Source of the DNA: a virus
Lineage: Duplodnaviria > Heunggongvirae > Uroviricota > Caudoviricetes
IMG/VR virus record: IMGVR_UViG_2545824717_000010
Strand: one strand, 5' to 3'
Length of the DNA: 23,357 nucleotides
The notes beneath the pieces were generated by a model. It made no database searches and was not told the origin of the DNA. It saw only the letters and a program-made list of their open reading frames with translations. The translations under genes and the position numbers were made by a program. Below are positions 1,385 through 13,666 of the stretch, piece by piece (within the stretch, counting starts at the first letter, position 1; every line of letters starts with the position of its first letter).

Positions 1385-2035
1385 TTACAAATTAAAAAAC
1401 GCCCTAGAAATGAAACCGCCTACCAAACCCCCTACGCAGATAAAGAATATTATTTCTTTTGGATAAAGTCGGATTAATTCTGAAGCACGAAGTCGGACTT
1501 CTGGTAAGGTCGAACTCTCTGTGTGGCTTGATGCCGATTGTTGCTCTAACCACGACAATGCAGACTGTAACTGAGAACGAGTAAGATCGTTTAAACGTCC
1601 TGTACCGAAATTGATATGGCAATACCGCAGAAGTTTTTGTCGAAGTCCACAGTCTTCACTGTTACGTAGTAATAAACTTACAAGAGCCTTACAGGCATCA
1701 TGATCTTTACATCGCTCAAGCATTGCATGCAGAAAACTCTCCGCTGTTTTATATTGATTTACTGTCATATCATCAATACCAGCTACACCAATCTCCGCAT
1801 GTACTTTTTGCCAAATAATAAACGCTTCAGTATTGCTAGCTTCTGCAATAGCAGCAACCAAGCTATTTAGCTCCTTACGCTGAACCTTAAGCAAAGGGCG
1901 ATCGTCATCATCATTATTCGAAGGGATTGCGATATTGACGGTCTGAGAACCATCATATCGCTCTATCTGAATATTCTTTTCGTGAAAATCACGCCCAGCA
2001 ACGCGATTGTTTGAACCGTTTGAGTTGACGGCCAT
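1385..2035 (-). CDS. Tail-anchored membrane protein, unknown function (cargo)
   Basis: 216 aa; soluble N-terminal domain with acidic DDDD stretch; single C-terminal hydrophobic segment (IIFFICVGGLVGGFISRAFF); AT-rich; 15 bp downstream of the HTH regulator gene. Confidence 0.6.
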   Translation of the reverse strand: MAVNSNGSNNRVAGRDFHEKNIQIERYDGSQTVNIAIPSNNDDDDRPLLKVQRKELNSLVAAIAEASNTEAFIIWQKVHAEIGVAGIDDMTVNQYKTAESFLHAMLERCKDHDACKALVSLLLRNSEDCGLRQKLLRYCHINFGTGRLNDLTRSQLQSALSWLEQQSASSHTESSTLPEVRLRASELIRLYPKEIIFFICVGGLVGGFISRAFFNL

Positions 2036-2050
2036 GTCACCTCCCTACTA

Positions 2051-2455
2051 TCACCTACCCTTAGTTTCGTTATAGTCACGACCAGCGATACGGTTATTAC
2101 CACCAGAAATATTTAACTCACGTCCTGATGGCTGAGTTTCCTTTTCACTGATCGCACCTTTTAAAGCCCCAATCACCGCGTTTTTCACATCTAACGAAGC
2201 TGCTCGAAAGCGAGTAATCAACTCCTGCTCATCATCGTTATAAGTTTCAGGTGAGTGAATTCCCAACACAACATACTGAACATCAAGGCCAAAACGAGAC
2301 AGCGCTGCCAAATACGCAGCATCAGGAAAGCTATCTCCTTTCTCATATCTAAGCTGAGTTAGCTTTTTGACTCCACCAATGTCGCTCATGGCAACTTGAC
2401 TAAGTCCCAATCTTTCCCTTTCCTCACGCAACCGCTGACCAATATCATTTTTCAT
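2051..2455 (-). CDS. HTH (XRE-type) transcriptional regulator, putative prophage repressor
   Basis: 134 aa; N-terminal helix-turn-helix pattern (QRLREERERLGLSQVAMSDIGGVKKLTQLRYEKG); divergent from the early operon; first gene of an operon ending in int, as P2 C-int. Confidence 0.7.
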   Translation of the reverse strand: MKNDIGQRLREERERLGLSQVAMSDIGGVKKLTQLRYEKGDSFPDAAYLAALSRFGLDVQYVVLGIHSPETYNDDEQELITRFRAASLDVKNAVIGALKGAISEKETQPSGRELNISGGNNRIAGRDYNETKGR

Positions 2456-2464
2456 ACAAAAACC

Positions 2465-2493
2465 TTGACAGGTATCTTTTTTGATACCAAAAT
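2465..2493 (+). promoter_or_regulatory. Candidate early promoter (-35 TTGACA, 17-bp spacer, -10 CAAAAT) with operator palindrome GGTATC-T6-GATACC in the spacer
   Basis: TTGACA at 2465..2470; perfect 6-bp inverted repeat at 2471..2488; lies in the divergent intergenic region between the repressor-like gene and the early operon. Confidence 0.4.
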
Positions 2494-2530
2494 GATTTCA
2501 CGAGCTATTAGATGATCACAATATACCACT

Positions 2531-2737
2531 ATGAAACAAGTTCTTCACGATACCAGATCACGCATTCCGCGTAACACCGCCACAGGTCCAAGACTGGCAC
2601 TTCGGCTGTCCCTCGAGGAGCGAGCCGTCATCGATGAAATGGCAGCTAAAGAACAACGCTCATCCTCTAACATGGCGCGCATGATCTTCCTTCGCGGCCT
2701 AGAGCTAACCCAGAAAGAACAAAACAAATCTTCCTGA
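2531..2737 (+). CDS. Small early regulator, possible ribbon-helix-helix fold (Cro/Cox-like role)
   Basis: 68 aa; predicted beta-strand (LALRLSL) followed by two helices (EERAVIDEMAAKEQ, NMARMIFLRGLE); first ORF of the rightward early operon; no obvious Shine-Dalgarno. Confidence 0.45.
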   Translation: MKQVLHDTRSRIPRNTATGPRLALRLSLEERAVIDEMAAKEQRSSSNMARMIFLRGLELTQKEQNKSS

Positions 2738-2753
2738 TCAGGAGGCTAGTGGG

Positions 2754-2957
2754 ATGTCAGGTATAACCATCAATATCAATGTGAATGCCCCCTATGTATC
2801 CCTGCAGAAATATGCAGAGATAACAGGTATCCCTCTTAATACATGCAAAAAGATGTTGGCTGACGGTCGAATTATTATCCGCCCCAAACGCGCCAAAATG
2901 GAAAAGCCTGAAGTAAACCTTGTGGCGATGTTAAAAGACGCTTTGGCTAACAGCTAA
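2754..2957 (+). CDS. Small HTH DNA-binding protein, Cox/excisionase-like
   Basis: 67 aa; strong RBS AGGAGG upstream; segment YVSLQKYAEITGIPLNTCKKMLADGRI resembles the HTH region of P2 Cox-type proteins as recalled. Confidence 0.5.
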   Translation: MSGITININVNAPYVSLQKYAEITGIPLNTCKKMLADGRIIIRPKRAKMEKPEVNLVAMLKDALANS

Positions 2958-5744: not shown

Positions 5745-8570
5745 ATGACGACAGAGTACATCAGGGACTGGCAACAACCGCGCCACGCAGTAGGACGTGA
5801 AGGAACGGAGATCCCCGCACCTGAATCCGCACTTTCCTCCTGGCTGGATGCCTACCGGGCAGAGAACGAGCGCCGCCAGGAAATGGCTGATGCGGCGTTC
5901 TCCGCCACGCCGCTGGGCAACCTGATTAATAAAAGCCTGGACGCACAGGAAAAACAGGACAAAACAATCACACTGGCAGGAGACGCCAGAAAACAGGCAC
6001 GCGGCGCGGTAGATGAGGCCATGGCCTCACTGCGCCTGCTGCCGTCCTATCTGCGCGATCCGCTTATTCGCCACCTCTCCTTCCTGCGCAAAAAACAGGA
6101 AGCCGATCGTCAGAAAGGAAAAAACGCCAGGCAGGCAGAACGCTATGCGCGTGGGACCCTGCGCAAAATATTCGAACGTCTGGAGCGCACCGATCACCGC
6201 TGGCTGACATCGGGTTATCGCTCCCTTGCCGGACGTGACCGCCTGGACGATTTGCTTTCCCTGCCGCAACTCAACAAACACCAGATACAGACGCTGGCCA
6301 CCATGACGGCGGCGATGTTCAGCAGCACCTTCGAAAAACTCTGCGATGGTTTTGGCGCGACTGATGGCGAGCTGACCATGGATGTAACGCTGAAGGTGTA
6401 TCAGATGCTGGCCCGCATGGCATTACATCTGCACACCATGCCGCCACATTATGACGCACTGACAACAGACAAAGACCGGAGGAACGAACCAGACACGGAG
6501 CTGCTGCCGGGCGCAATTCTTCGCCTGACCTGTGCGGAATGGTGGAAGCGCAAACTGTGGCTTTTACGTTGCGAGTGGCGGGAAGAACAACTCCGCGCCG
6601 CCTGTCTGGTTTCCAGAAAAACATCGCCCTATCTGAGCCAGGACGCGTTAAGCGAGTTTCGCGCACAGCGCGAGAAAACACGCGATTTCCTGAAAAGTTT
6701 CATGCTGGAAAACGAAGACGGGTTCACGATTGATCTCGAGACAGTGTATTACGCGGGAGTAAGTAACCCGGTTCACCGTAAGGCAGAAATGATGGCCACC
6801 ATGAAGGGGCTGGAACTTCTGGCCGAAGCCCGTGGCGACAAAGCGGTGTTTCTGACTGTCACCTGCCCGTCAAAATACCACGCCACAACAGAGAACGGTC
6901 ATCCGAATCCCAAATGGAACGGGGCCACCATGCGCGACTCCAGCGATTATCTGGTTAACACGTTTTTTGCGGCGGTCCGCAAAAAACTGAACCGCGACGG
7001 CCTGCGCTGGTATGGCATCCGCACGGTGGAGCCTCACCATGACGGCACCGTGCACTGGCATATGATGGTCTTTGCTCATCCGGAAGAAATCGACAGCATC
7101 GTGGCCATCACCCGCGATATTGCCATTCAGGAAGACCGCCACGAGCTGGGCAATGATATTACTCCGCGCTTTAAGGTGGAGTATGTCGACGGCTCAAAAG
7201 GCACACCAACCAGCTATATCGCGACCTACATCGGAAAAAACCTGGACAGCCGCGCCGTCGATGGCATCGACCCGAAAACGGGCAAGCCACGCGTTGACCA
7301 CGAAACCGGAAAATCAATGGCCGAGAGCGTGGAGCGCGCCATCGGCTGGGCGCGCCTTCACCGGGTCCGTCAGTTCCAGTTCTTTGGCATCCCCTCCCGT
7401 CAGGTGTGGCGTGAACTGCGCCGCCTTGCCAGCCAGATGGCACGCAATCCGGAAGGCCCGCAACGGCTGAAAGATGATGCAATGGATGCGGTACTCGCTG
7501 CCGCCGATGCCGGGTGTTTTGCCTCCTACATTGAAAAACAGGGTGGCGTGCTTGTTCCACGCAAGGACTACCTGATTCGCACCGCCTACGACCTCGCAGA
7601 TGAGCTGAACGATTACGGCGAACAGAGCGTACAGATTTACGGGATCTGGTCACCACTCATCGGGGAATCCTCCCGTGTGTGCACGCATCCGGATAACTGG
7701 AAGTTGGTAAGACGTAAACCAGAACCAGAAGACAACGCCCACGAAAATGGTTTTGACCTTCAGGGCGGCCCTGCCGCCCCTTGGACTCGTGGCAATAACT
7801 GTCCCCGTGTACAGGAAACAGGCAACAGCGGGACAGAACAGTCGAAAGAACGGCCAGCACCGTGGCCGCAGCTTCCTGACGGCGTTGAAGTGAACGAATG
7901 GATGCGCTCACTGAAACGGCACGAACGCCGGGCGCTGATGCGTTCGCTTCGTGACAAACAGGCAAAAAACAGCAGTGATGAAATGCAGAGCTGGACACAG
8001 AGCCGCAAACAGCAGCGGCCTTTGCCTGATAACCACGAATTACTCGCTAAAGAATGGCGGGAATCTGCCGAATCTCTCGGCCTGCATATCGGTGAACAGC
8101 AGATGCAGCACCTGTTACGGGGAGGCAGCCTGTACGTTGACGGCAGCATCATTGCACCGCAGGGATTTGAAATTGTACGCAAACCGGATACCCGCCCGGC
8201 CAGCCGAATCACGCAGCTCTGGCAGCGCCTGAGCCGTAATCACGGCGTAAGCAGCACAGAGATCCGTCATAACCCGGTCGCCAGCTATCTGGCACAGCTG
8301 GGGGCATCAGACCCCGAAGCCGCCGCACGTCTGGCATCCACACTTCAGCAGGACCAGAACACCATGAAAACCCCCGTTACCGTGCTTTCTGACATGCTGC
8401 GCGCCATCCGTGACGCAGAGCACGCACAAAGAATCAATGAAACCACTGAACGCGCCCGCCGCAAGGCTACTTTGCTCCAAAAGAGAGGCAAACAGCACTT
8501 TAGTAATCAAAATGATGATGAGAAAAAACAATTACAAAGTTGGATATGCCTTTTCCATCATGAGGGATGA
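5745..8570 (+). CDS. A: Replication initiation endonuclease (rolling-circle, HUH class), P2 gpA homolog with extended C-terminus
   Basis: 941 aa; HUH metal motif VHWHMMVF (about 7050..7080); tyrosine motif YIATYIGKN (about 7210..7236); position before the cargo locus as in P2. Longer than P2 A as recalled (about 760 aa). Confidence 0.85.
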   Translation: MTTEYIRDWQQPRHAVGREGTEIPAPESALSSWLDAYRAENERRQEMADAAFSATPLGNLINKSLDAQEKQDKTITLAGDARKQARGAVDEAMASLRLLPSYLRDPLIRHLSFLRKKQEADRQKGKNARQAERYARGTLRKIFERLERTDHRWLTSGYRSLAGRDRLDDLLSLPQLNKHQIQTLATMTAAMFSSTFEKLCDGFGATDGELTMDVTLKVYQMLARMALHLHTMPPHYDALTTDKDRRNEPDTELLPGAILRLTCAEWWKRKLWLLRCEWREEQLRAACLVSRKTSPYLSQDALSEFRAQREKTRDFLKSFMLENEDGFTIDLETVYYAGVSNPVHRKAEMMATMKGLELLAEARGDKAVFLTVTCPSKYHATTENGHPNPKWNGATMRDSSDYLVNTFFAAVRKKLNRDGLRWYGIRTVEPHHDGTVHWHMMVFAHPEEIDSIVAITRDIAIQEDRHELGNDITPRFKVEYVDGSKGTPTSYIATYIGKNLDSRAVDGIDPKTGKPRVDHETGKSMAESVERAIGWARLHRVRQFQFFGIPSRQVWRELRRLASQMARNPEGPQRLKDDAMDAVLAAADAGCFASYIEKQGGVLVPRKDYLIRTAYDLADELNDYGEQSVQIYGIWSPLIGESSRVCTHPDNWKLVRRKPEPEDNAHENGFDLQGGPAAPWTRGNNCPRVQETGNSGTEQSKERPAPWPQLPDGVEVNEWMRSLKRHERRALMRSLRDKQAKNSSDEMQSWTQSRKQQRPLPDNHELLAKEWRESAESLGLHIGEQQMQHLLRGGSLYVDGSIIAPQGFEIVRKPDTRPASRITQLWQRLSRNHGVSSTEIRHNPVASYLAQLGASDPEAAARLASTLQQDQNTMKTPVTVLSDMLRAIRDAEHAQRINETTERARRKATLLQKRGKQHFSNQNDDEKKQLQSWICLFHHEG

Positions 8571-8592
8571 GATGTGAATCGCTAACCGAATA

Positions 8593-8622
8593 TTGTGTTG
8601 AATAGAATGCAATTGATATAAT
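8593..8622 (+). promoter_or_regulatory. Candidate sigma70 promoter for the cargo operon (-35 TTGTGT, 18-bp spacer, -10 TATAAT)
   Basis: TTGTGT at 8593..8598 and perfect TATAAT at 8617..8622, about 135 bp upstream of the MTase start. Confidence 0.45.
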
Positions 8623-8650
8623 TCCCCTTAATTCATTGAAAACTGGATTT

Positions 8651-8668
8651 TTTGCATAACTATGCAAA
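8651..8668. promoter_or_regulatory. Perfect 8-bp inverted repeat TTTGCATA-AC-TATGCAAA (operator-like) between promoter and MTase start
   Basis: Read directly; reverse complement of TTTGCATA is TATGCAAA; 2-bp centre. Confidence 0.4.
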
Positions 8669-8755
8669 TATCTATGGACGGCGACGATGTTTTTTATCGG
8701 GAAAACTCAAGTGCCATGTTAAGATTATGTTTATTTTTTACTGAGAAAATCGTGG

Positions 8756-9601
8756 ATGACAAAGCCTTCTCATTTTAGAACCCCTCTTCGTTATCCGGGA
8801 GGTAAGGCAAAATTCTTGCCACATATTGAACAAATACTCCGCAACAATGATCTCATTGGTGGATGTTATGCTGAACCTTATGCAGGTGGAGCCGGTGTAG
8901 CATTAGGTTTGCTCCTTAACGGTCTTGTTGAAAATATCTTCATAAATGATATTGATCCTGCCCTTTATTCTTTTTGGTTTGCAGTGGTTAATCATAACGA
9001 TCTGTTATGTGAAATGATTGATGAAGTTCCTGTGACTATTGAAAATTGGCATACTCAAAAGGAGATACTCCTAAACAATGATAAATATAGTATGCTTGAA
9101 GTCGCATTATCTACTTTCTTTTTAAATAGAACAAACCGTTCAGGAATACTTAAGGCTGGCGTTATTGGAGGGAAAGAACAAAAAGGACCATGGAAGTTAG
9201 ATGCAAGATTCAACAAAAAAGAGTTAATTAAAAGGATTGAACTAATTGGTGCATATAAGGAGAAAATTTACGTATCGAATTTTGATGCTGTAGATTTTCT
9301 GCTACACCAAAAAGCATTGCTACCCAAAAATAGTCTAATATATCTTGATCCACCTTATTATGTTAAAGGAGCAGAGTTATATAGAAATTTTTATAAACAT
9401 GATGATCATGTAAAAATCGCTAATACACTACGGGAAATTCAACTACCTTGGGTTGTGTCTTATGACAATGTGCCTGAAATAAAAAGCATATATCATGAAT
9501 TCAATATGACTGATTATACGCTTAATTATACTGCACAAGATAAGAAAAAAGGTCTAGAAATTATCATTTATAATCATGGTATAAAAATCCCTGACATTTA
9601 A
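8756..9601 (+). CDS. N6-adenine DNA methyltransferase, D12/Dam family (alpha class)
   Basis: 281 aa; N-terminal RYPGGK motif; SAM-binding motif I EPYAGGAGV (about 8870..8896); catalytic motif IV DPPY (9347..9358); markedly AT-rich versus flanks. Target sequence cannot be inferred. Confidence 0.85.
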   Translation: MTKPSHFRTPLRYPGGKAKFLPHIEQILRNNDLIGGCYAEPYAGGAGVALGLLLNGLVENIFINDIDPALYSFWFAVVNHNDLLCEMIDEVPVTIENWHTQKEILLNNDKYSMLEVALSTFFLNRTNRSGILKAGVIGGKEQKGPWKLDARFNKKELIKRIELIGAYKEKIYVSNFDAVDFLLHQKALLPKNSLIYLDPPYYVKGAELYRNFYKHDDHVKIANTLREIQLPWVVSYDNVPEIKSIYHEFNMTDYTLNYTAQDKKKGLEIIIYNHGIKIPDI

Positions 9602-9618
9602 ATTTAAGGATGATATAG

Positions 9619-11316
9619 ATGATTAAAGAAATTAGTTTTAAAAAATTTAAGAAACTGATAGATATTGACTTCTCATTCAATGAAGACATCAATATAATAT
9701 CAGGAACCAATGGGACATGTAAGACAACATTGCTTCATTTAATTAGCAATGGTTTCCAAATGCCACCATCTCGATCACAAAATTATTCAAATAGTAATTG
9801 TGTTAGAGTTATAAAATCTATAAACAAAATAGCCAACCCCAAAATGGAAGCAATTGTTAGGGAATCAAAAAATTACACCGATCCGGCAGAGGGAACAAAA
9901 GGTGTGTTATTTTCTATTAACTATTTGGATCATAGCACACTAGACTTCAGAAAGCACAACTCAAAAAATCCAGACGAAGCGCAACGGTATGCTATCAAAC
10001 CAGTATACCCACGCGGAAAAGAAAAACAATCACTTCCAGCTAAACCAGTTTTATATCTTGGATTATCGCGACTATTCCCAATTGGTGAAACTAAAGACGA
10101 CGCCCTTACAAAAATTCCGTTAAACCTACCAGAAGAGTATGTTGGTTATATATCGAAAATATATAATGAACTTTTGGGAATTAATATTATAAATATAGAA
10201 TCAAACAATATCGGTGATTTTAAAGCTGGCCCATTATTTGATACCGATAACCCAGCAATTGATTCTAATACCATATCATCCGGGGAAGACAATATATTCA
10301 TTATAATCAAGGCATTAGTTAGCCTTAGGTATTATTTTGAATCACTTATTCAATCCACTGATCAAAAAGAAAGCATTCTGTTAATAGATGAATTTGATGC
10401 CACTTTACATCCTTCTTTACAGATAAGATTATTAGATAAAATTTATCAATACGCAAAAGATTATAAGATTCAAGTATTTTTCACAACGCACAGTCTGACA
10501 TTGCTAGAGTATGCTTTTCATAAAAAATACCATGTTGTCTATCTAATTAACAATATTACAAAGGCTCTGCTTTTGGATAATCCTGATATATTAAAAATAA
10601 CAATGTATCTGAAAACACAAACAAAGGATGAGATATACACAAGGAACAAGATACCAGTTTTCACGGAAGATGAAGAAGCTCGCTTTTTATTTAATGAAAT
10701 ACTTGGTTATTGGATAAGCAAATATCCAAATTTTGCTATAGTTAGTAATTCATTTCACTTAATTGATTGTTTCATTGGTGCAGACAATTTAAAAACTATT
10801 TTTAATGATTCTCATCTTAAGGAAACCTCGTTAAAATCAATTTGTATTCTTGATGGAGATCACAGCCCTGAGGATCAGAGAGGAATTATATCACTGCCGG
10901 GTGAAAAAGCTCCAGAACAATTGATATTTGAGCATTGTGAGCACCTTTATAATACCGACGACTCTTCCTTCTGGGAAAATCAGGATATAATTAACAATGG
11001 TTTTTCGAAAGAGTTATACTTACTCAAGATACGTCCTCAATTACAATCAATTGAAACTGAAATTCAGAAAAGAAAAGACAACCATGAGTCTACATCCGGT
11101 TTAAGAAGAAGATTAAATAAGAAAATATTCAATCAGCATATTGAATTCTTTAGAATGATTACAAGAAACTGGTTAGACAAACCAGAAAATCAGAAATCTC
11201 TCCAGTATTTTTACAATGGATTACGATCCTTATTCTACCGGGTTACACCAACAAACGGCATTGACAGAAAAATTTGGGATTTTGACTATAACAAAATCAT
11301 TAAAGAGGATAAATAA
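9619..11316 (+). CDS. ABC-type ATPase fused to a TOPRIM-like nuclease domain (OLD/PARIS-like architecture)
   Basis: 565 aa; Walker A GTNGTCKTT (about 9703..9729); Walker B LLIDEFD (about 10381..10400); TTHS motif; C-terminal region with conserved Glu (VFTEDEEA, about 10654..10680) and DxD (ILDGDH, about 10846..10860) consistent with TOPRIM; starts 17 bp after the MTase stop; very AT-rich. Confidence 0.75.
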   Translation: MIKEISFKKFKKLIDIDFSFNEDINIISGTNGTCKTTLLHLISNGFQMPPSRSQNYSNSNCVRVIKSINKIANPKMEAIVRESKNYTDPAEGTKGVLFSINYLDHSTLDFRKHNSKNPDEAQRYAIKPVYPRGKEKQSLPAKPVLYLGLSRLFPIGETKDDALTKIPLNLPEEYVGYISKIYNELLGINIINIESNNIGDFKAGPLFDTDNPAIDSNTISSGEDNIFIIIKALVSLRYYFESLIQSTDQKESILLIDEFDATLHPSLQIRLLDKIYQYAKDYKIQVFFTTHSLTLLEYAFHKKYHVVYLINNITKALLLDNPDILKITMYLKTQTKDEIYTRNKIPVFTEDEEARFLFNEILGYWISKYPNFAIVSNSFHLIDCFIGADNLKTIFNDSHLKETSLKSICILDGDHSPEDQRGIISLPGEKAPEQLIFEHCEHLYNTDDSSFWENQDIINNGFSKELYLLKIRPQLQSIETEIQKRKDNHESTSGLRRRLNKKIFNQHIEFFRMITRNWLDKPENQKSLQYFYNGLRSLFYRVTPTNGIDRKIWDFDYNKIIKEDK

Positions 11317-11553
11317 TGTATTCTAATAGGATATAAACATCAAAGCTATATTTTTTACACATATCAAGAGTAAAAAATAATTTAACTTTTACATAACGAC
11401 CTCTTTTACAAATAAGTAGAAAAGGTCGTTATAACTCTCATCTCCATAGCATGTAATTTTCTTTGCATATTTTCACATAACAGTCAGGGATGTATTTATA
11501 AGCAACGTCGTATACATAGGCTCAATTTTTCTATAAATAAGCACTCCGTTCGG

Positions 11554-11583
11554 TTTGCACAATAGTGCACAAATTTGCACAAT
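11554..11583. repeat. Three tandem 10-bp direct repeats (TTTGCACAAT / AGTGCACAAA / TTTGCACAAT)
   Basis: Read directly; units 1 and 3 identical; one-helical-turn periodicity; located at the AT-rich to GC-rich transition on the right side of the cargo island. Confidence 0.6.
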
Positions 11584-11952
11584 TTTTTTGAACGACTTTT
11601 GCCCTTCCGGCCCGCATGGCGGCTGGATCCGTCAAGGATCCGTGCGTGCACAAAAAAACGCGCTTTTTCTGCGCGCAGGTGACGGGGGAACAGCCCGCGT
11701 TTCAGGGGGTAAATAGCATTCCCTGAACGATGTCGCAGAGACACAACAGAATGGCCATATTTCTCACGCTGAGCATGAAAAAGGCGTGAGGGCTTTTGAT
11801 TTGATGGGGTGAAAGGTAAGGCCGTCAAAATCGCACTGAGGCAGCGAGAACATACAGTCAACGCGGTGGAATTGCGTAAGAGTCTGACCGTCGATGGTGG
11901 CGATAAACTGGAAGGCGTCGTGAAATTATCTGATTGATACAGGAGCTGGAGA

Positions 11953-11981: not shown

Positions 11982-12080
11982 GAAGCAGCAGACAAGCGAA
12001 GCGCGTCAGCGATACGGCACCTTGCCGACCATACTTCATAAGTGCAAAATACGAGCAAAGAAATCAATGGAGGCTGTCTT

Positions 12081-12605
12081 ATGGTCATTAATTACAAGCA
12101 GTTAAGAGAAAAACGGGAGCAGGTAAAGGAGAGCTTTCGCCGCAATGAAGATCTGACCCCGCTTGTACGCCTTGCCCAGGGCATTGTTGATGCTTATGAA
12201 ATCTCGCTGGAGCTGCCATCACAGACCTGGACAGATAGCGACGGTAATCGCCAGCATTACGTTTCATGCGGACTGGAAGCAGCCGAAGGATTTCGCAGAA
12301 TGCCTTTATCCCAGATCCCTGCCGCTACCCCCAAAGCACGGGGCAGCAATGATGAGCGAAAACTGACTTTTAGTATTGAAACGGTGGTTGACGACACACC
12401 TGGCGAAGTCGCGTTCGTACACACTCCTGTTTCGATCGCAATGTATAACGATGAAATACAGGTTCGCGTTAATAATAATATCGTGCCACTTAAAGAAGGT
12501 AATTCACCCTACACCACCGTTTGTGAAGCCATTCAATATTACGTTCTCTCTGAAATTGATAATCTCAAGCCTGACGGCACCCAGAAAATGGTTCAACTCT
12601 GGTAA
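12081..12605 (+). CDS. Hypothetical protein (unassigned cargo gene between packaging region and portal gene)
   Basis: 174 aa from ATG at 12081 with RBS GGAGG 7 nt upstream (the track ORF starts at 12042 in the same frame); followed by an intrinsic terminator; no family recognised. Confidence 0.55.
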   Translation: MVINYKQLREKREQVKESFRRNEDLTPLVRLAQGIVDAYEISLELPSQTWTDSDGNRQHYVSCGLEAAEGFRRMPLSQIPAATPKARGSNDERKLTFSIETVVDDTPGEVAFVHTPVSIAMYNDEIQVRVNNNIVPLKEGNSPYTTVCEAIQYYVLSEIDNLKPDGTQKMVQLW

Positions 12606-12611
12606 AAAGGA

Positions 12612-12636
12612 CAGCCCCATCACGGGGCTGTTTTTT
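12612..12636. terminator. Bidirectional intrinsic terminator between convergent genes
   Basis: 7-bp GC stem CAGCCCC/GGGGCTG with 5-nt loop followed by TTTTTT on plus strand and by TTTTT on the minus strand (complement of AAAAA at 12604..12608); overlaps the Q stop codon. Confidence 0.7.
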
Positions 12637-13666
12637 CATCAAGAAGAGCATAAGAGTTAAAACGGATCACCTCTTCGCCAAGCCAGTCATTGATGTGCTT
12701 CATAGCCTCCATGACGGGCATCAGCTCGTTAATTGCGTAAACCCGCGCTGCCTTCTCCACATCGCCAAACGCACTTTTTTCGCCCGGCATCGCCCCCATC
12801 AGTTGCGGCGGAACGCGGTGCGCAGCCAGCACATCATCACGGGATGCCGCCTTAACATTCATGAATTCATCTTTTGCGGTGATCTGCTGGAACGGCAAAA
12901 TTTGCACCCCCTCTTTGCCCCCGTTGGGCGCATGAATGAGCACGTTTTTAAACGCACCACCACCACGTGCCCCCTGTAGCGTTTCTTTCAGGGAGTCCAT
13001 GCTTTCGCGGTTTACCTGCGCTGCACCGATGTAGATGATGCACCCGGCGTGGGATCCGTTGTCGTAGTACAGTTTTCTGAACATGTCCGCCGAATGAGAA
13101 AGGCTGGCCGAGAGTAATGCGCCAAGATATTCCGGCATGCCGTAGATTTCCTGGTTAATATCCGGATTCATCAGGTGGCACACTTTGCCAGGACGAAACT
13201 GAAACGCGTCCTTGCCATCCTGCACATACCACCATGATTCAAGATCGCTTCCGCGTCGCATGTATTTCGCCAGGGCGTGCCGTAATTTAAGCGGTTCGCC
13301 GAGCATATTGCTTCGAAGCTCAAGGAATGCGTTACCGAACACAAACCAGTCCAGCGCCAGCGCCGAGAAATCCTGCCGGGAAAGCAGCGGGTGCGGGATG
13401 TAGCAACCGAGTAATACATTGCGCTTAAAGTAAAGCGCAGACTGATGCCAGGACGTTTGCCGGGCAGCTCTTGCCAGACCGTACCAGTCCACCGGGGTTT
13501 CATACCACCGCCCGTTATCAGCACAGTACATATTGTCCAGCAGGTCATGCCCGGTCAGGCGATAAGGACCATCAAATGTGAATGCACTGAGCGATGATTC
13601 TTTCCTGAGCGCATCAGCGAGATCAATGCGTGAACTCATGCGCACTTTTTTATTTTTTCTGCTCAT
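12620..13666 (-). CDS. Q: Portal protein, P2 gpQ homolog
   Basis: 348 aa, similar length to P2 Q; position adjacent to the terminase gene; recalled sequence similarity. Confidence 0.85.
   Translation of the reverse strand: MSRKNKKVRMSSRIDLADALRKESSLSAFTFDGPYRLTGHDLLDNMYCADNGRWYETPVDWYGLARAARQTSWHQSALYFKRNVLLGCYIPHPLLSRQDFSALALDWFVFGNAFLELRSNMLGEPLKLRHALAKYMRRGSDLESWWYVQDGKDAFQFRPGKVCHLMNPDINQEIYGMPEYLGALLSASLSHSADMFRKLYYDNGSHAGCIIYIGAAQVNRESMDSLKETLQGARGGGAFKNVLIHAPNGGKEGVQILPFQQITAKDEFMNVKAASRDDVLAAHRVPPQLMGAMPGEKSAFGDVEKAARVYAINELMPVMEAMKHINDWLGEEVIRFNSYALLDEKTAP

Follow-up and report, generated by a model that had tools for sequence, protein, structure and literature searches.

PD-lambda-5 is a validated defence system from P2-like prophages, described in Escherichia coli ECOR7 as a 2461-bp unit annotated 'ParB/HEPN, methyltransferase' (Vassallo et al. 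2022, PMC9519451). It protects against 9 of the 10 phages tested, and its E. coli homologues occupy the same site between the gpA and portal genes, designated 'P2 defence hotspot #1' (PMC9519451). Cloning of PD-lambda-5 required an mrr-deleted host, implying that its methyltransferase (MTase) is active in vivo, and the authors read the system as a compact 'RM+Abi' system (PMC9519451). Anti-phage activity was demonstrated for the ECOR7 A+B system only (PMC9519451), and the HHsearch tables in part 2 of the supplement cover other systems only. OLD nucleases, which include P2 Old, Thermus OLD (6p74), GajA, the retron-Eco8 effector and PARIS, combine an N-terminal ABC ATPase interrupted by an insert with a C-terminal TOPRIM domain containing a conserved Glu and a DxD motif. 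A 2023 review of the OLD classes lists singleton, helicase-linked and retron-linked gene contexts and mentions no methyltransferase-linked one (PMC10568477). Here, we analyze a two-gene cassette encoding an adenine MTase and an OLD-like ATPase, located at positions 8756 to 11316 of a 23,357-nucleotide stretch of viral DNA (IMG/VR record IMGVR_UViG_2545824717_000010), the whole of which is referred to as the window. The source of this DNA is a P2-like E. coli prophage. The pair looks like an undescribed sister of PD-lambda-5, with another nuclease partner on the same MTase family.

A preliminary description of the window, made from its letters, had proposed that the two open reading frames (ORFs) form a methylation-linked anti-phage module. 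Both ORFs, their coordinates and all quoted motifs are present on the plus strand, and the second gene starts 17 bp after the stop codon of the first, with AAGGA in the gap. The cassette is organized as follows:

8756..9601, plus strand: D12-class (alpha) N6-adenine DNA MTase of the PD-Lambda-5_B family, 281 amino acids (Pfam, PADLOC)
9602..9618, plus strand: intergenic spacer of 17 bp with an AAGGA Shine-Dalgarno sequence (sequence read; operon layout)
9619..10650, plus strand: ABC-ATPase head, residues 1-344, with an insert at about residues 45-215
10651..11007, plus strand: TOPRIM-like, predicted nuclease domain, residues 345-463, with E350/D351/E353 and D412-G-D414
11008..11316, plus strand: C-terminal helical bundle, residues 464-565 plus the stop codon, with conserved R497, K501 and W518 (AlphaFold2 models, conservation)

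The product of the first ORF contains the motifs PLRYPGGK, AEPYAGGAGV and YLDPPYY and matched Pfam PF02086 with 74.4 bits (E=1.6e-20; gathering cut-off, 22). Its best match anywhere was the PADLOC model PD-Lambda-5_B (PDLC04018; 404 bits, E=8.3e-122), followed by 359 bits on the PADLOC MTase_II model (PDLC03358) and weak matches to the oMTase models of the same collection. The enzyme had initially been assigned to the Dam family. Its D12 class is correct, whereas its score on the Dam model TIGR00571 (70.5) is below the cut-off of 114.85; the MTase is therefore not a Dam orthologue but a member of a separate D12 subfamily, and specificity for GATC is not implied. The PGGK motif, G44-G45, N64-D65 and D198-P-P-Y201 are each at least 95% conserved in 64 homologues. 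Kinship with M.EcoGII was considered and rejected, since M.EcoGII is a class-beta enzyme (PMC7544214) and the MTase of the window is a class-alpha D12 enzyme.

The 565-residue product of the second ORF (9619-11316, plus strand) contains the motifs GTNGTCKTT, LLIDEFD, TTHS, VFTEDEEA and ILDGDH. Its head displays the Walker A, ABC signature, Walker B and H-loop elements of ABC-type ATPases and matched Pfam AAA_15 (E=3.1e-12) and AAA_21 (E=1.4e-10). For both proteins, these domain matches greatly exceed chance expectation. PADLOC returned only generic ATPase matches of at most 58 bits (HEC-04, PtuA, retron ATPase-Toprim, AriA and GajA models), and the PHROGs family of the protein is phrog_3940, of 'unknown function' (452 bits). 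The C-terminal part (residues 311-565) had no Pfam match at E≤10, a search of the ATPase profile against PDB sequences gave matches confined to the ATPase motifs, and the hhalign alignment with P2 Old was limited to 46 columns around Walker B. A phmmer search with the C-terminal domain against 1.84 billion representative proteins retrieved its own clade only. This family comprises 160 clusters at 50% identity, is mostly located at the C terminus of proteins of about 550 to 610 residues, and is separate from classical OLD, GajA and AriB; the helical bundle always accompanies the TOPRIM-like domain. The predicted nuclease domain of the window protein is too divergent for detection by Pfam or other hidden Markov models.

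An AlphaFold model of the ATPase was generated from 35 homologues (predicted local distance difference test score of 79.8, and about 90 in the C-terminal part) and used for a Foldseek search. Over its full length, the model was closest to GajA (E=4.8e-10), the retron-Eco8 OLD effector and Thermus OLD 6p74. In the table of structural matches, the entries are Thermus OLD (6p74; 5.7), a retron Ec67 protein (9i2f; 5.7), PARIS AriB (8v46_D; 5.3) and the C-terminal region of a class 2 OLD (6nk8; 5.2), AriB being among the top matches of the C-terminal domain. Residues E350/D351/E353 and D412-G-D414 lie at the ends of strands and do not vary within the family; the C-terminal domain is modelled as a TOPRIM fold that includes the conserved Glu and the DxD metal site. 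These structural matches, combined with the invariance of E350 and of D412-G-D414, therefore support the assignment of the second protein as an OLD-like ABC ATPase plus TOPRIM protein, predicted to be a nuclease. A TOPRIM domain had first been guessed from two short motifs; the guess is supported by structure, although no Pfam model detects the domain.

The association between the two genes was investigated in 80 loci containing relatives of the ATPase (25 to 60% identity) and taken from a species-representative genome collection. An MTase of the same family (35 to 57% identity) was found beside the ATPase in 68 of these loci. Among the remaining 12, nine were in contigs ending at most 93 bp past the ATPase gene, one was cut upstream, and two were true absences, so that the MTase is present in 68 of 70 evaluable loci. 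The arrangements were distributed as follows:

ATPase then MTase, same strand: 54 loci
MTase then ATPase, as in the window: 6 loci
Convergent ATPase and MTase genes: 3 loci
Divergent ATPase and MTase genes: 1 locus
Extra gene between ATPase and MTase: 4 loci

The hosts of the paired loci belong to the Firmicutes, Proteobacteria, Actinobacteria, Spirochaetes, Fusobacteria, Deferribacteres, Planctomycetes and others. Among complete E. coli genomes, 15 contain the ATPase gene (for example, those of strains AR_0013 and FDAARGOS_1285), each time alongside the MTase gene. The relationship is asymmetric: members of the MTase family are also found where no ATPase is present, whereas an ATPase lacking the MTase is very rare. 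The pairwise identities of one protein correlate with those of the other (r=0.57), and none of 999 Mantel permutations reached as high a value. The catalytic residues of both enzymes are each at least 95% conserved across 64 pairs, and both enzymes retain all of them down to 20% identity. No protein fusing the ATPase, or its C-terminal domain, to the MTase turned up. In the close relatives from Salmonella and Klebsiella (71 to 77% identity), the MTase gene also comes first, 18 bp separate it from the ATPase gene, and the cassette is carried by integrase islands; in two Klebsiella loci (L101 and L102), the island adjoins smpB and holds other defence-like genes. Elsewhere, the cassette is found in prophages, integrative and conjugative elements (ICEs) and integrase islands with other defence-like genes. 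The MTase-first loci from the genome scan are not P2 prophages, and gene order is therefore not tied to the P2 context. The coupling suggested in the preliminary description is borne out by this co-occurrence check: because of the adjacency in 68 of 70 loci and the co-evolution, the MTase and the ATPase are considered to be functionally coupled rather than chance neighbours.

The two exceptions to MTase dependence are intact ATPase genes from Rhizobium (L047, 3971-5737) and Pseudorhizobium (L049, 4001-5695), whose products belong to the family (41% identity) and retain all catalytic residues, with no MTase gene within 4 kb. The neighbours of the former encode an AbiTii-like protein (158 bits) and a HerA-like ATPase; the latter is next to a convergent gene for a 501-residue protein with no PADLOC match. 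In E. coli, a further subfamily of the ATPase shares about 25% identity with the window protein and 47 to 55% among its own members, with the MTase present each time. Its ATPase-then-MTase pairs (L094, 1649-4288; L095, 1849-4561; L003, 3096-5745) were located in an e14-like prophage (at its integrase end, next to icd), in an integrase-flanked island and within an ICE. The island-type MTase of this subfamily is among the commonest matches, including in strains 042 and JJ1887, and the RefSeq labels are 'AAA family ATPase' or 'ATP-dependent nuclease' for one protein and 'DNA adenine methylase' for the other. A Desulfosporosinus prophage (L005) carries two D12 MTase genes, at 2002-2784 (minus strand) and 6744-7571 (plus strand); one is located directly after the ATPase gene, and the second (260 residues) is about 2.2 kb upstream on the opposite strand.

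Probable PD-lambda-5 loci (L004, L093 and L096), located in the same P2 hotspot, encode a 501-residue protein and a 294-residue MTase within 2460 bp. The 501-residue partner scored 558 bits on the PD-Lambda-5_A model, and the MTase of L004 is 53% identical to that of the window. The window ATPase gave E>1 in a BLASTP comparison with a bona fide PD-Lambda-5_A protein, and the PD-Lambda-5_A model was not among its top 25 PADLOC matches. In a lambdoid prophage, a 49%-identical MTase occurs with a convergent PD-Lambda-5_A homologue. In the MTase tree, the enzymes that accompany PD-Lambda-5_A are nested within the proteobacterial MTases that have the ATPase as a partner. The extra gene present in four of the loci described above encodes PD-Lambda-5_A (up to 893 bits), in the order ATPase, A, MTase (L045, 4001-8527; L067, 1895-6065; L083, 4001-8165; L090, 4001-8177); the hosts of these three-gene loci are Fontibacillus, Vallitalea and organisms represented by an uncultured Bacilli and a Tenericutes metagenome-assembled genome. 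The nested tree and the three-gene loci therefore indicate that one MTase lineage serves two unrelated NTPase-nuclease partners, alone or together. The three-gene loci may represent the full 'RM+Abi' form, with PD-lambda-5 and the window pair as two-gene reductions.

The window pair thus resembles PD-lambda-5 in its MTase family, its P2-like insertion site and its two-gene layout combining the MTase with an NTPase-nuclease of about 500 to 565 residues. It differs in the nature of the partner, an ABC-ATPase/TOPRIM protein in the window and a ParB/Srx-HEPN protein in PD-lambda-5, and in gene order, which is reversed. Since a named validated system has a matching MTase, insertion site and overall logic, the pair is not categorically new. 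The initial statement that it could not be placed in any named system is accordingly correct only in part, as it missed this relative. A literature search found no paper pairing an OLD-like ATPase with a dedicated adenine MTase, the ABC ATPase classification of Krishnan et al. 2020 being outside its reach, and PADLOC 2.0 and NCBIfam contain no model specific to the ATPase and none naming the pairing. A detector requiring both the A and B components of PD-Lambda-5 would not be expected to call the window pair. The PluTI element was considered as a precedent for an OLD-MTase association and rejected, as it contains a helicase/OLD (Gabija-like) pair beside an ordinary restriction-modification (R-M) system (PMC2875022).

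Comparison with the OLD family showed that the window ATPase, although encoded at the same locus as Old in phage P2, differs from OLD classes 1 to 4 by its gene context. These classes have, respectively, no partner, a UvrD-like helicase, a reverse transcriptase with a noncoding RNA, and a split DUF4435 partner. No helicase, reverse transcriptase or DUF4435 ORF is present in the island that contains the cassette, according to the ORF list, and the neighbour is a D12 MTase in 68 of the 70 loci; the pair fits none of the singleton, Gabija, retron and split PARIS contexts. The pair shares with Type II (or ATP-dependent) R-M systems the adjacency of an MTase and a predicted nuclease, a variable gene order, a location in mobile, AT-rich foreign DNA and the dependence of the predicted effector on the MTase. 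Unlike in Type II systems, the predicted nuclease is an ABC-ATPase/TOPRIM protein, and we know of no characterized restriction endonuclease with that architecture. PrrC and RloC, which are ABC-ATPase-nuclease proteins found within R-M loci, also combine an ABC-type ATPase with a C-terminal nuclease domain (predicted in the case of the window protein), a link to DNA-modification genes and an 'RM+Abi' logic. They are HEPN-like anticodon nucleases associated with Type I hsd operons, whereas the domain of the window protein is TOPRIM-like and its sole companion is a small D12 MTase.

The rarity of the ATPase without the MTase, as opposed to the occurrence of the MTase without the ATPase, is characteristic of an effector tolerated only in the presence of the modification, or of the modifier itself. 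The strict conservation of the MTase motifs and the service of one MTase lineage to two unrelated partners point to the DNA mark as what matters. On these grounds, we favour a methylation-gated, R-M-like defence module in which the effector cuts invading DNA, with a probability of about 0.5. The D12 MTase would methylate adenines in the DNA of the lysogen and its prophage, thereby providing a self mark, and the ABC-ATPase head of the OLD-family effector would engage DNA. Unmarked DNA, such as that of an incoming phage, would trigger an ATP-dependent rearrangement licensing the C-terminal two-metal TOPRIM nuclease, the favoured target being the invading DNA itself. Two OLD relatives, GajA and the retron-Eco8 effector, are DNA-cleaving enzymes (PMC8136825, PMC12887533). 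The pair would be a functional counterpart of PD-lambda-5, in which the same MTase family works with a ParB/HEPN NTPase-nuclease, and the two effectors would be interchangeable or stackable. Methylation gating as such, with the MTase marking self and irrespective of what the effector cleaves, is probable. Chances are about even for the broader proposal that a widespread, modification-dependent immune system of two genes uses the OLD-family protein as its restriction (or methylation-gated abortive) arm, with the D12 MTase as a shared self-marking chassis on which unrelated effectors of the OLD-like or ParB/HEPN type are swapped or stacked.

The coupling between the MTase and the ATPase fits equally well a methylation-gated abortive infection system, in which the ABC head would sense unmethylated foreign DNA and the TOPRIM domain would cleave host tRNAs (or RNA), arresting translation and leaving the infected cell killed or stalled. 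P2 Old, encoded at the same locus, is reported to be an abortive tRNase activated once its ABC head senses DNA structures (preprint 10.64898/2026.07.10.737580), and AriB of PARIS, recovered among the top C-terminal structural matches, is also a TOPRIM tRNase (PMC11464382). PD-lambda-5 was itself called 'RM+Abi' (PMC9519451), and its A protein has a HEPN domain, which is typically an RNase. However, GajA and the retron-Eco8 OLD effector, which are DNA cutters, are equally close structurally, the sequence does not distinguish an RNA from a DNA substrate, and an abortive effector gated by host methylation is without described precedent, making this explanation unlikely, if conceivable. A guard of the PrrC/EcoprrI type would dispense with reading of the mark altogether: binding of the MTase would hold the OLD-like protein inactive until a phage factor (DNA mimic, SAM hydrolase or methylase inhibitor) disables or titrates the MTase. 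The tight adjacency and co-evolution are also expected of a protein-protein complex, PrrC and RloC provide examples of such nucleases embedded in R-M loci, and the ATPase weakly matches the model of AriA (about 54 bits), a component of PARIS, which senses the anti-restriction protein Ocr (PMC9122126). The strictly conserved catalytic motifs of the MTase would nonetheless be needless in a mere scaffold, the use of one MTase lineage with two unrelated partners is more easily achieved through a shared DNA mark than through two protein interfaces, and no fusions of the two proteins were found. We therefore regard a guard function as improbable.

Dependence of the toxin-like ATPase on the MTase is also the expected signature of a selfish addiction module, which, like some R-M systems, would stabilize its mobile element by post-segregational killing, with little or no contribution to phage defence. 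The pair is always carried by mobile elements (the P2 hotspot, an ICE, an e14-like prophage and integrase islands), with a GC content foreign to the host. Addiction is compatible with defence, though, and the protection conferred by the homologous PD-lambda-5 and the population of the gpA-portal hotspot by defence systems leave addiction as the prevailing function quite improbable. Finally, the two genes could be independent cargo, namely an orphan MTase shielding phage DNA from host restriction, as had been envisaged in the preliminary description, and a stand-alone, class 1-like OLD protein. Orphan D12 methylases are frequent in phages, the MTase has the weak oMTase matches mentioned above, and class 1 OLD proteins act alone (PMC10568477). 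This explanation does not account for the adjacency across phyla in both gene orders, the co-evolution and the joint transfer of the two genes between unrelated elements; the orphan alternative is effectively refuted by the co-occurrence of the two genes, and independence is extremely improbable.

The cassette is located in an AT-rich cargo island of the prophage, whose identity to strain TW10598 is 100% across the regions searched; the cassette is 99.9 to 100% identical to that of strain E110019. The features of the site are as follows:

8571..11552, no strand assigned: island of AT-rich cargo DNA (about 31% GC) that separates gpA from the conserved P2-like backbone (GC profile)
8614..8622, plus strand: possible promoter, extended -10 element TGATATAAT, about 135 nucleotides upstream of the MTase start (read from the sequence)
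11565..11590, plus strand: hairpin resembling a terminator, with a T-run after it, immediately within the conserved backbone (consensus scan)

The AT richness ascribed to the pair was recovered in the GC profile, which ranges per 500-bp segment from 0.29 to 0.36 across positions 8501-11500 versus 0.50 to 0.59 (about 55%) in the flanks. The left edge of the island is the gpA stop codon at 8570, and the right edge is at about 11552, since hundreds of P2-like prophages align (99.7%) only from position 11553 on. The island is flanked by the gpA replication endonuclease gene (5745-8570, plus strand) and the portal gene (12620-13666, minus strand), an insertion site that corresponds to the tin/old locus of phage P2. 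The position proposed in the preliminary description is thus correct as regards this known defence hotspot. As regards the location 'before cos', the 19-nucleotide P2 cos sequence GGCGAGGCGGGGAAAGCAC had no match with up to 3 mismatches on either strand of the whole window, and the cos sequence of this P2-like phage would have to be a different one. An Rfam scan of the window gave no matches. The extended -10 element TGATATAAT was not reported by the consensus promoter scan because the -35 element is weak. The hairpin at 11565..11590 is tentatively considered as a possible operon terminator. A near-perfect inverted repeat, TAACGACCTCTTTT ... AAAAGGTCGTTA, is present at 11396-11431 (plus strand) in the AT-rich tail of the island, about 80 nucleotides past the ATPase stop codon and without a T-run; it could be a remnant of the cargo boundary, or a hairpin with a regulatory role.

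Additional observations concern the remainder of the prophage. An ORF for a 187-residue protein (12042-12605, plus strand) is located between the island and the portal gene, and its product matches phrog_5091 (unknown function, 227 bits), with no Pfam or PADLOC match. E110019, whose hotspot is identical in other respects, lacks this ORF, and its portal gene is about 610 bp closer. In TW10598, as in about 397 other E. coli genomes, the ORF adjoins the portal gene, and it could be an additional hotspot gene. Three minus-strand ORFs (1008-2455) separate the integrase gene (1-1002, cut by the window edge) from the plus-strand early genes and encode a DUF2511 protein (115 residues), a 216-residue phrog_5825 protein that is weakly membrane-protein-like, and a 134-residue helix-turn-helix (HTH) protein; GC content drops to 0.35 near 1001-1500. 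In E110019, an HTH repressor gene directly follows the integrase gene, and the 1008-2455 region therefore looks like a second small cargo or moron site. GpA comprises 941 residues, versus 761 in phage P2, with a Phage_GPA domain restricted to residues 179-503 and long N- and C-terminal extensions.

If the proposed mechanism is correct, the cassette would define a methylation-linked, fifth gene-context class of OLD nucleases, with a nuclease architecture new among restriction enzymes. At 2.6 kb, derived from E. coli and located in a hotspot from which native-promoter cloning has worked, it is an easily tested candidate. Confirmation would imply that current detection tools probably miss a cassette that spans many phyla and several mobile elements of E. 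coli. It would also provide a comparative handle on the broad-spectrum system PD-lambda-5, the use of one MTase lineage with two NTPase-nucleases pointing to the DNA mark as the shared signal, and would bear on the triggers of OLD proteins, a live question given that the trigger sensed differs between P2 Old, PARIS, Gabija and retron-Eco8.

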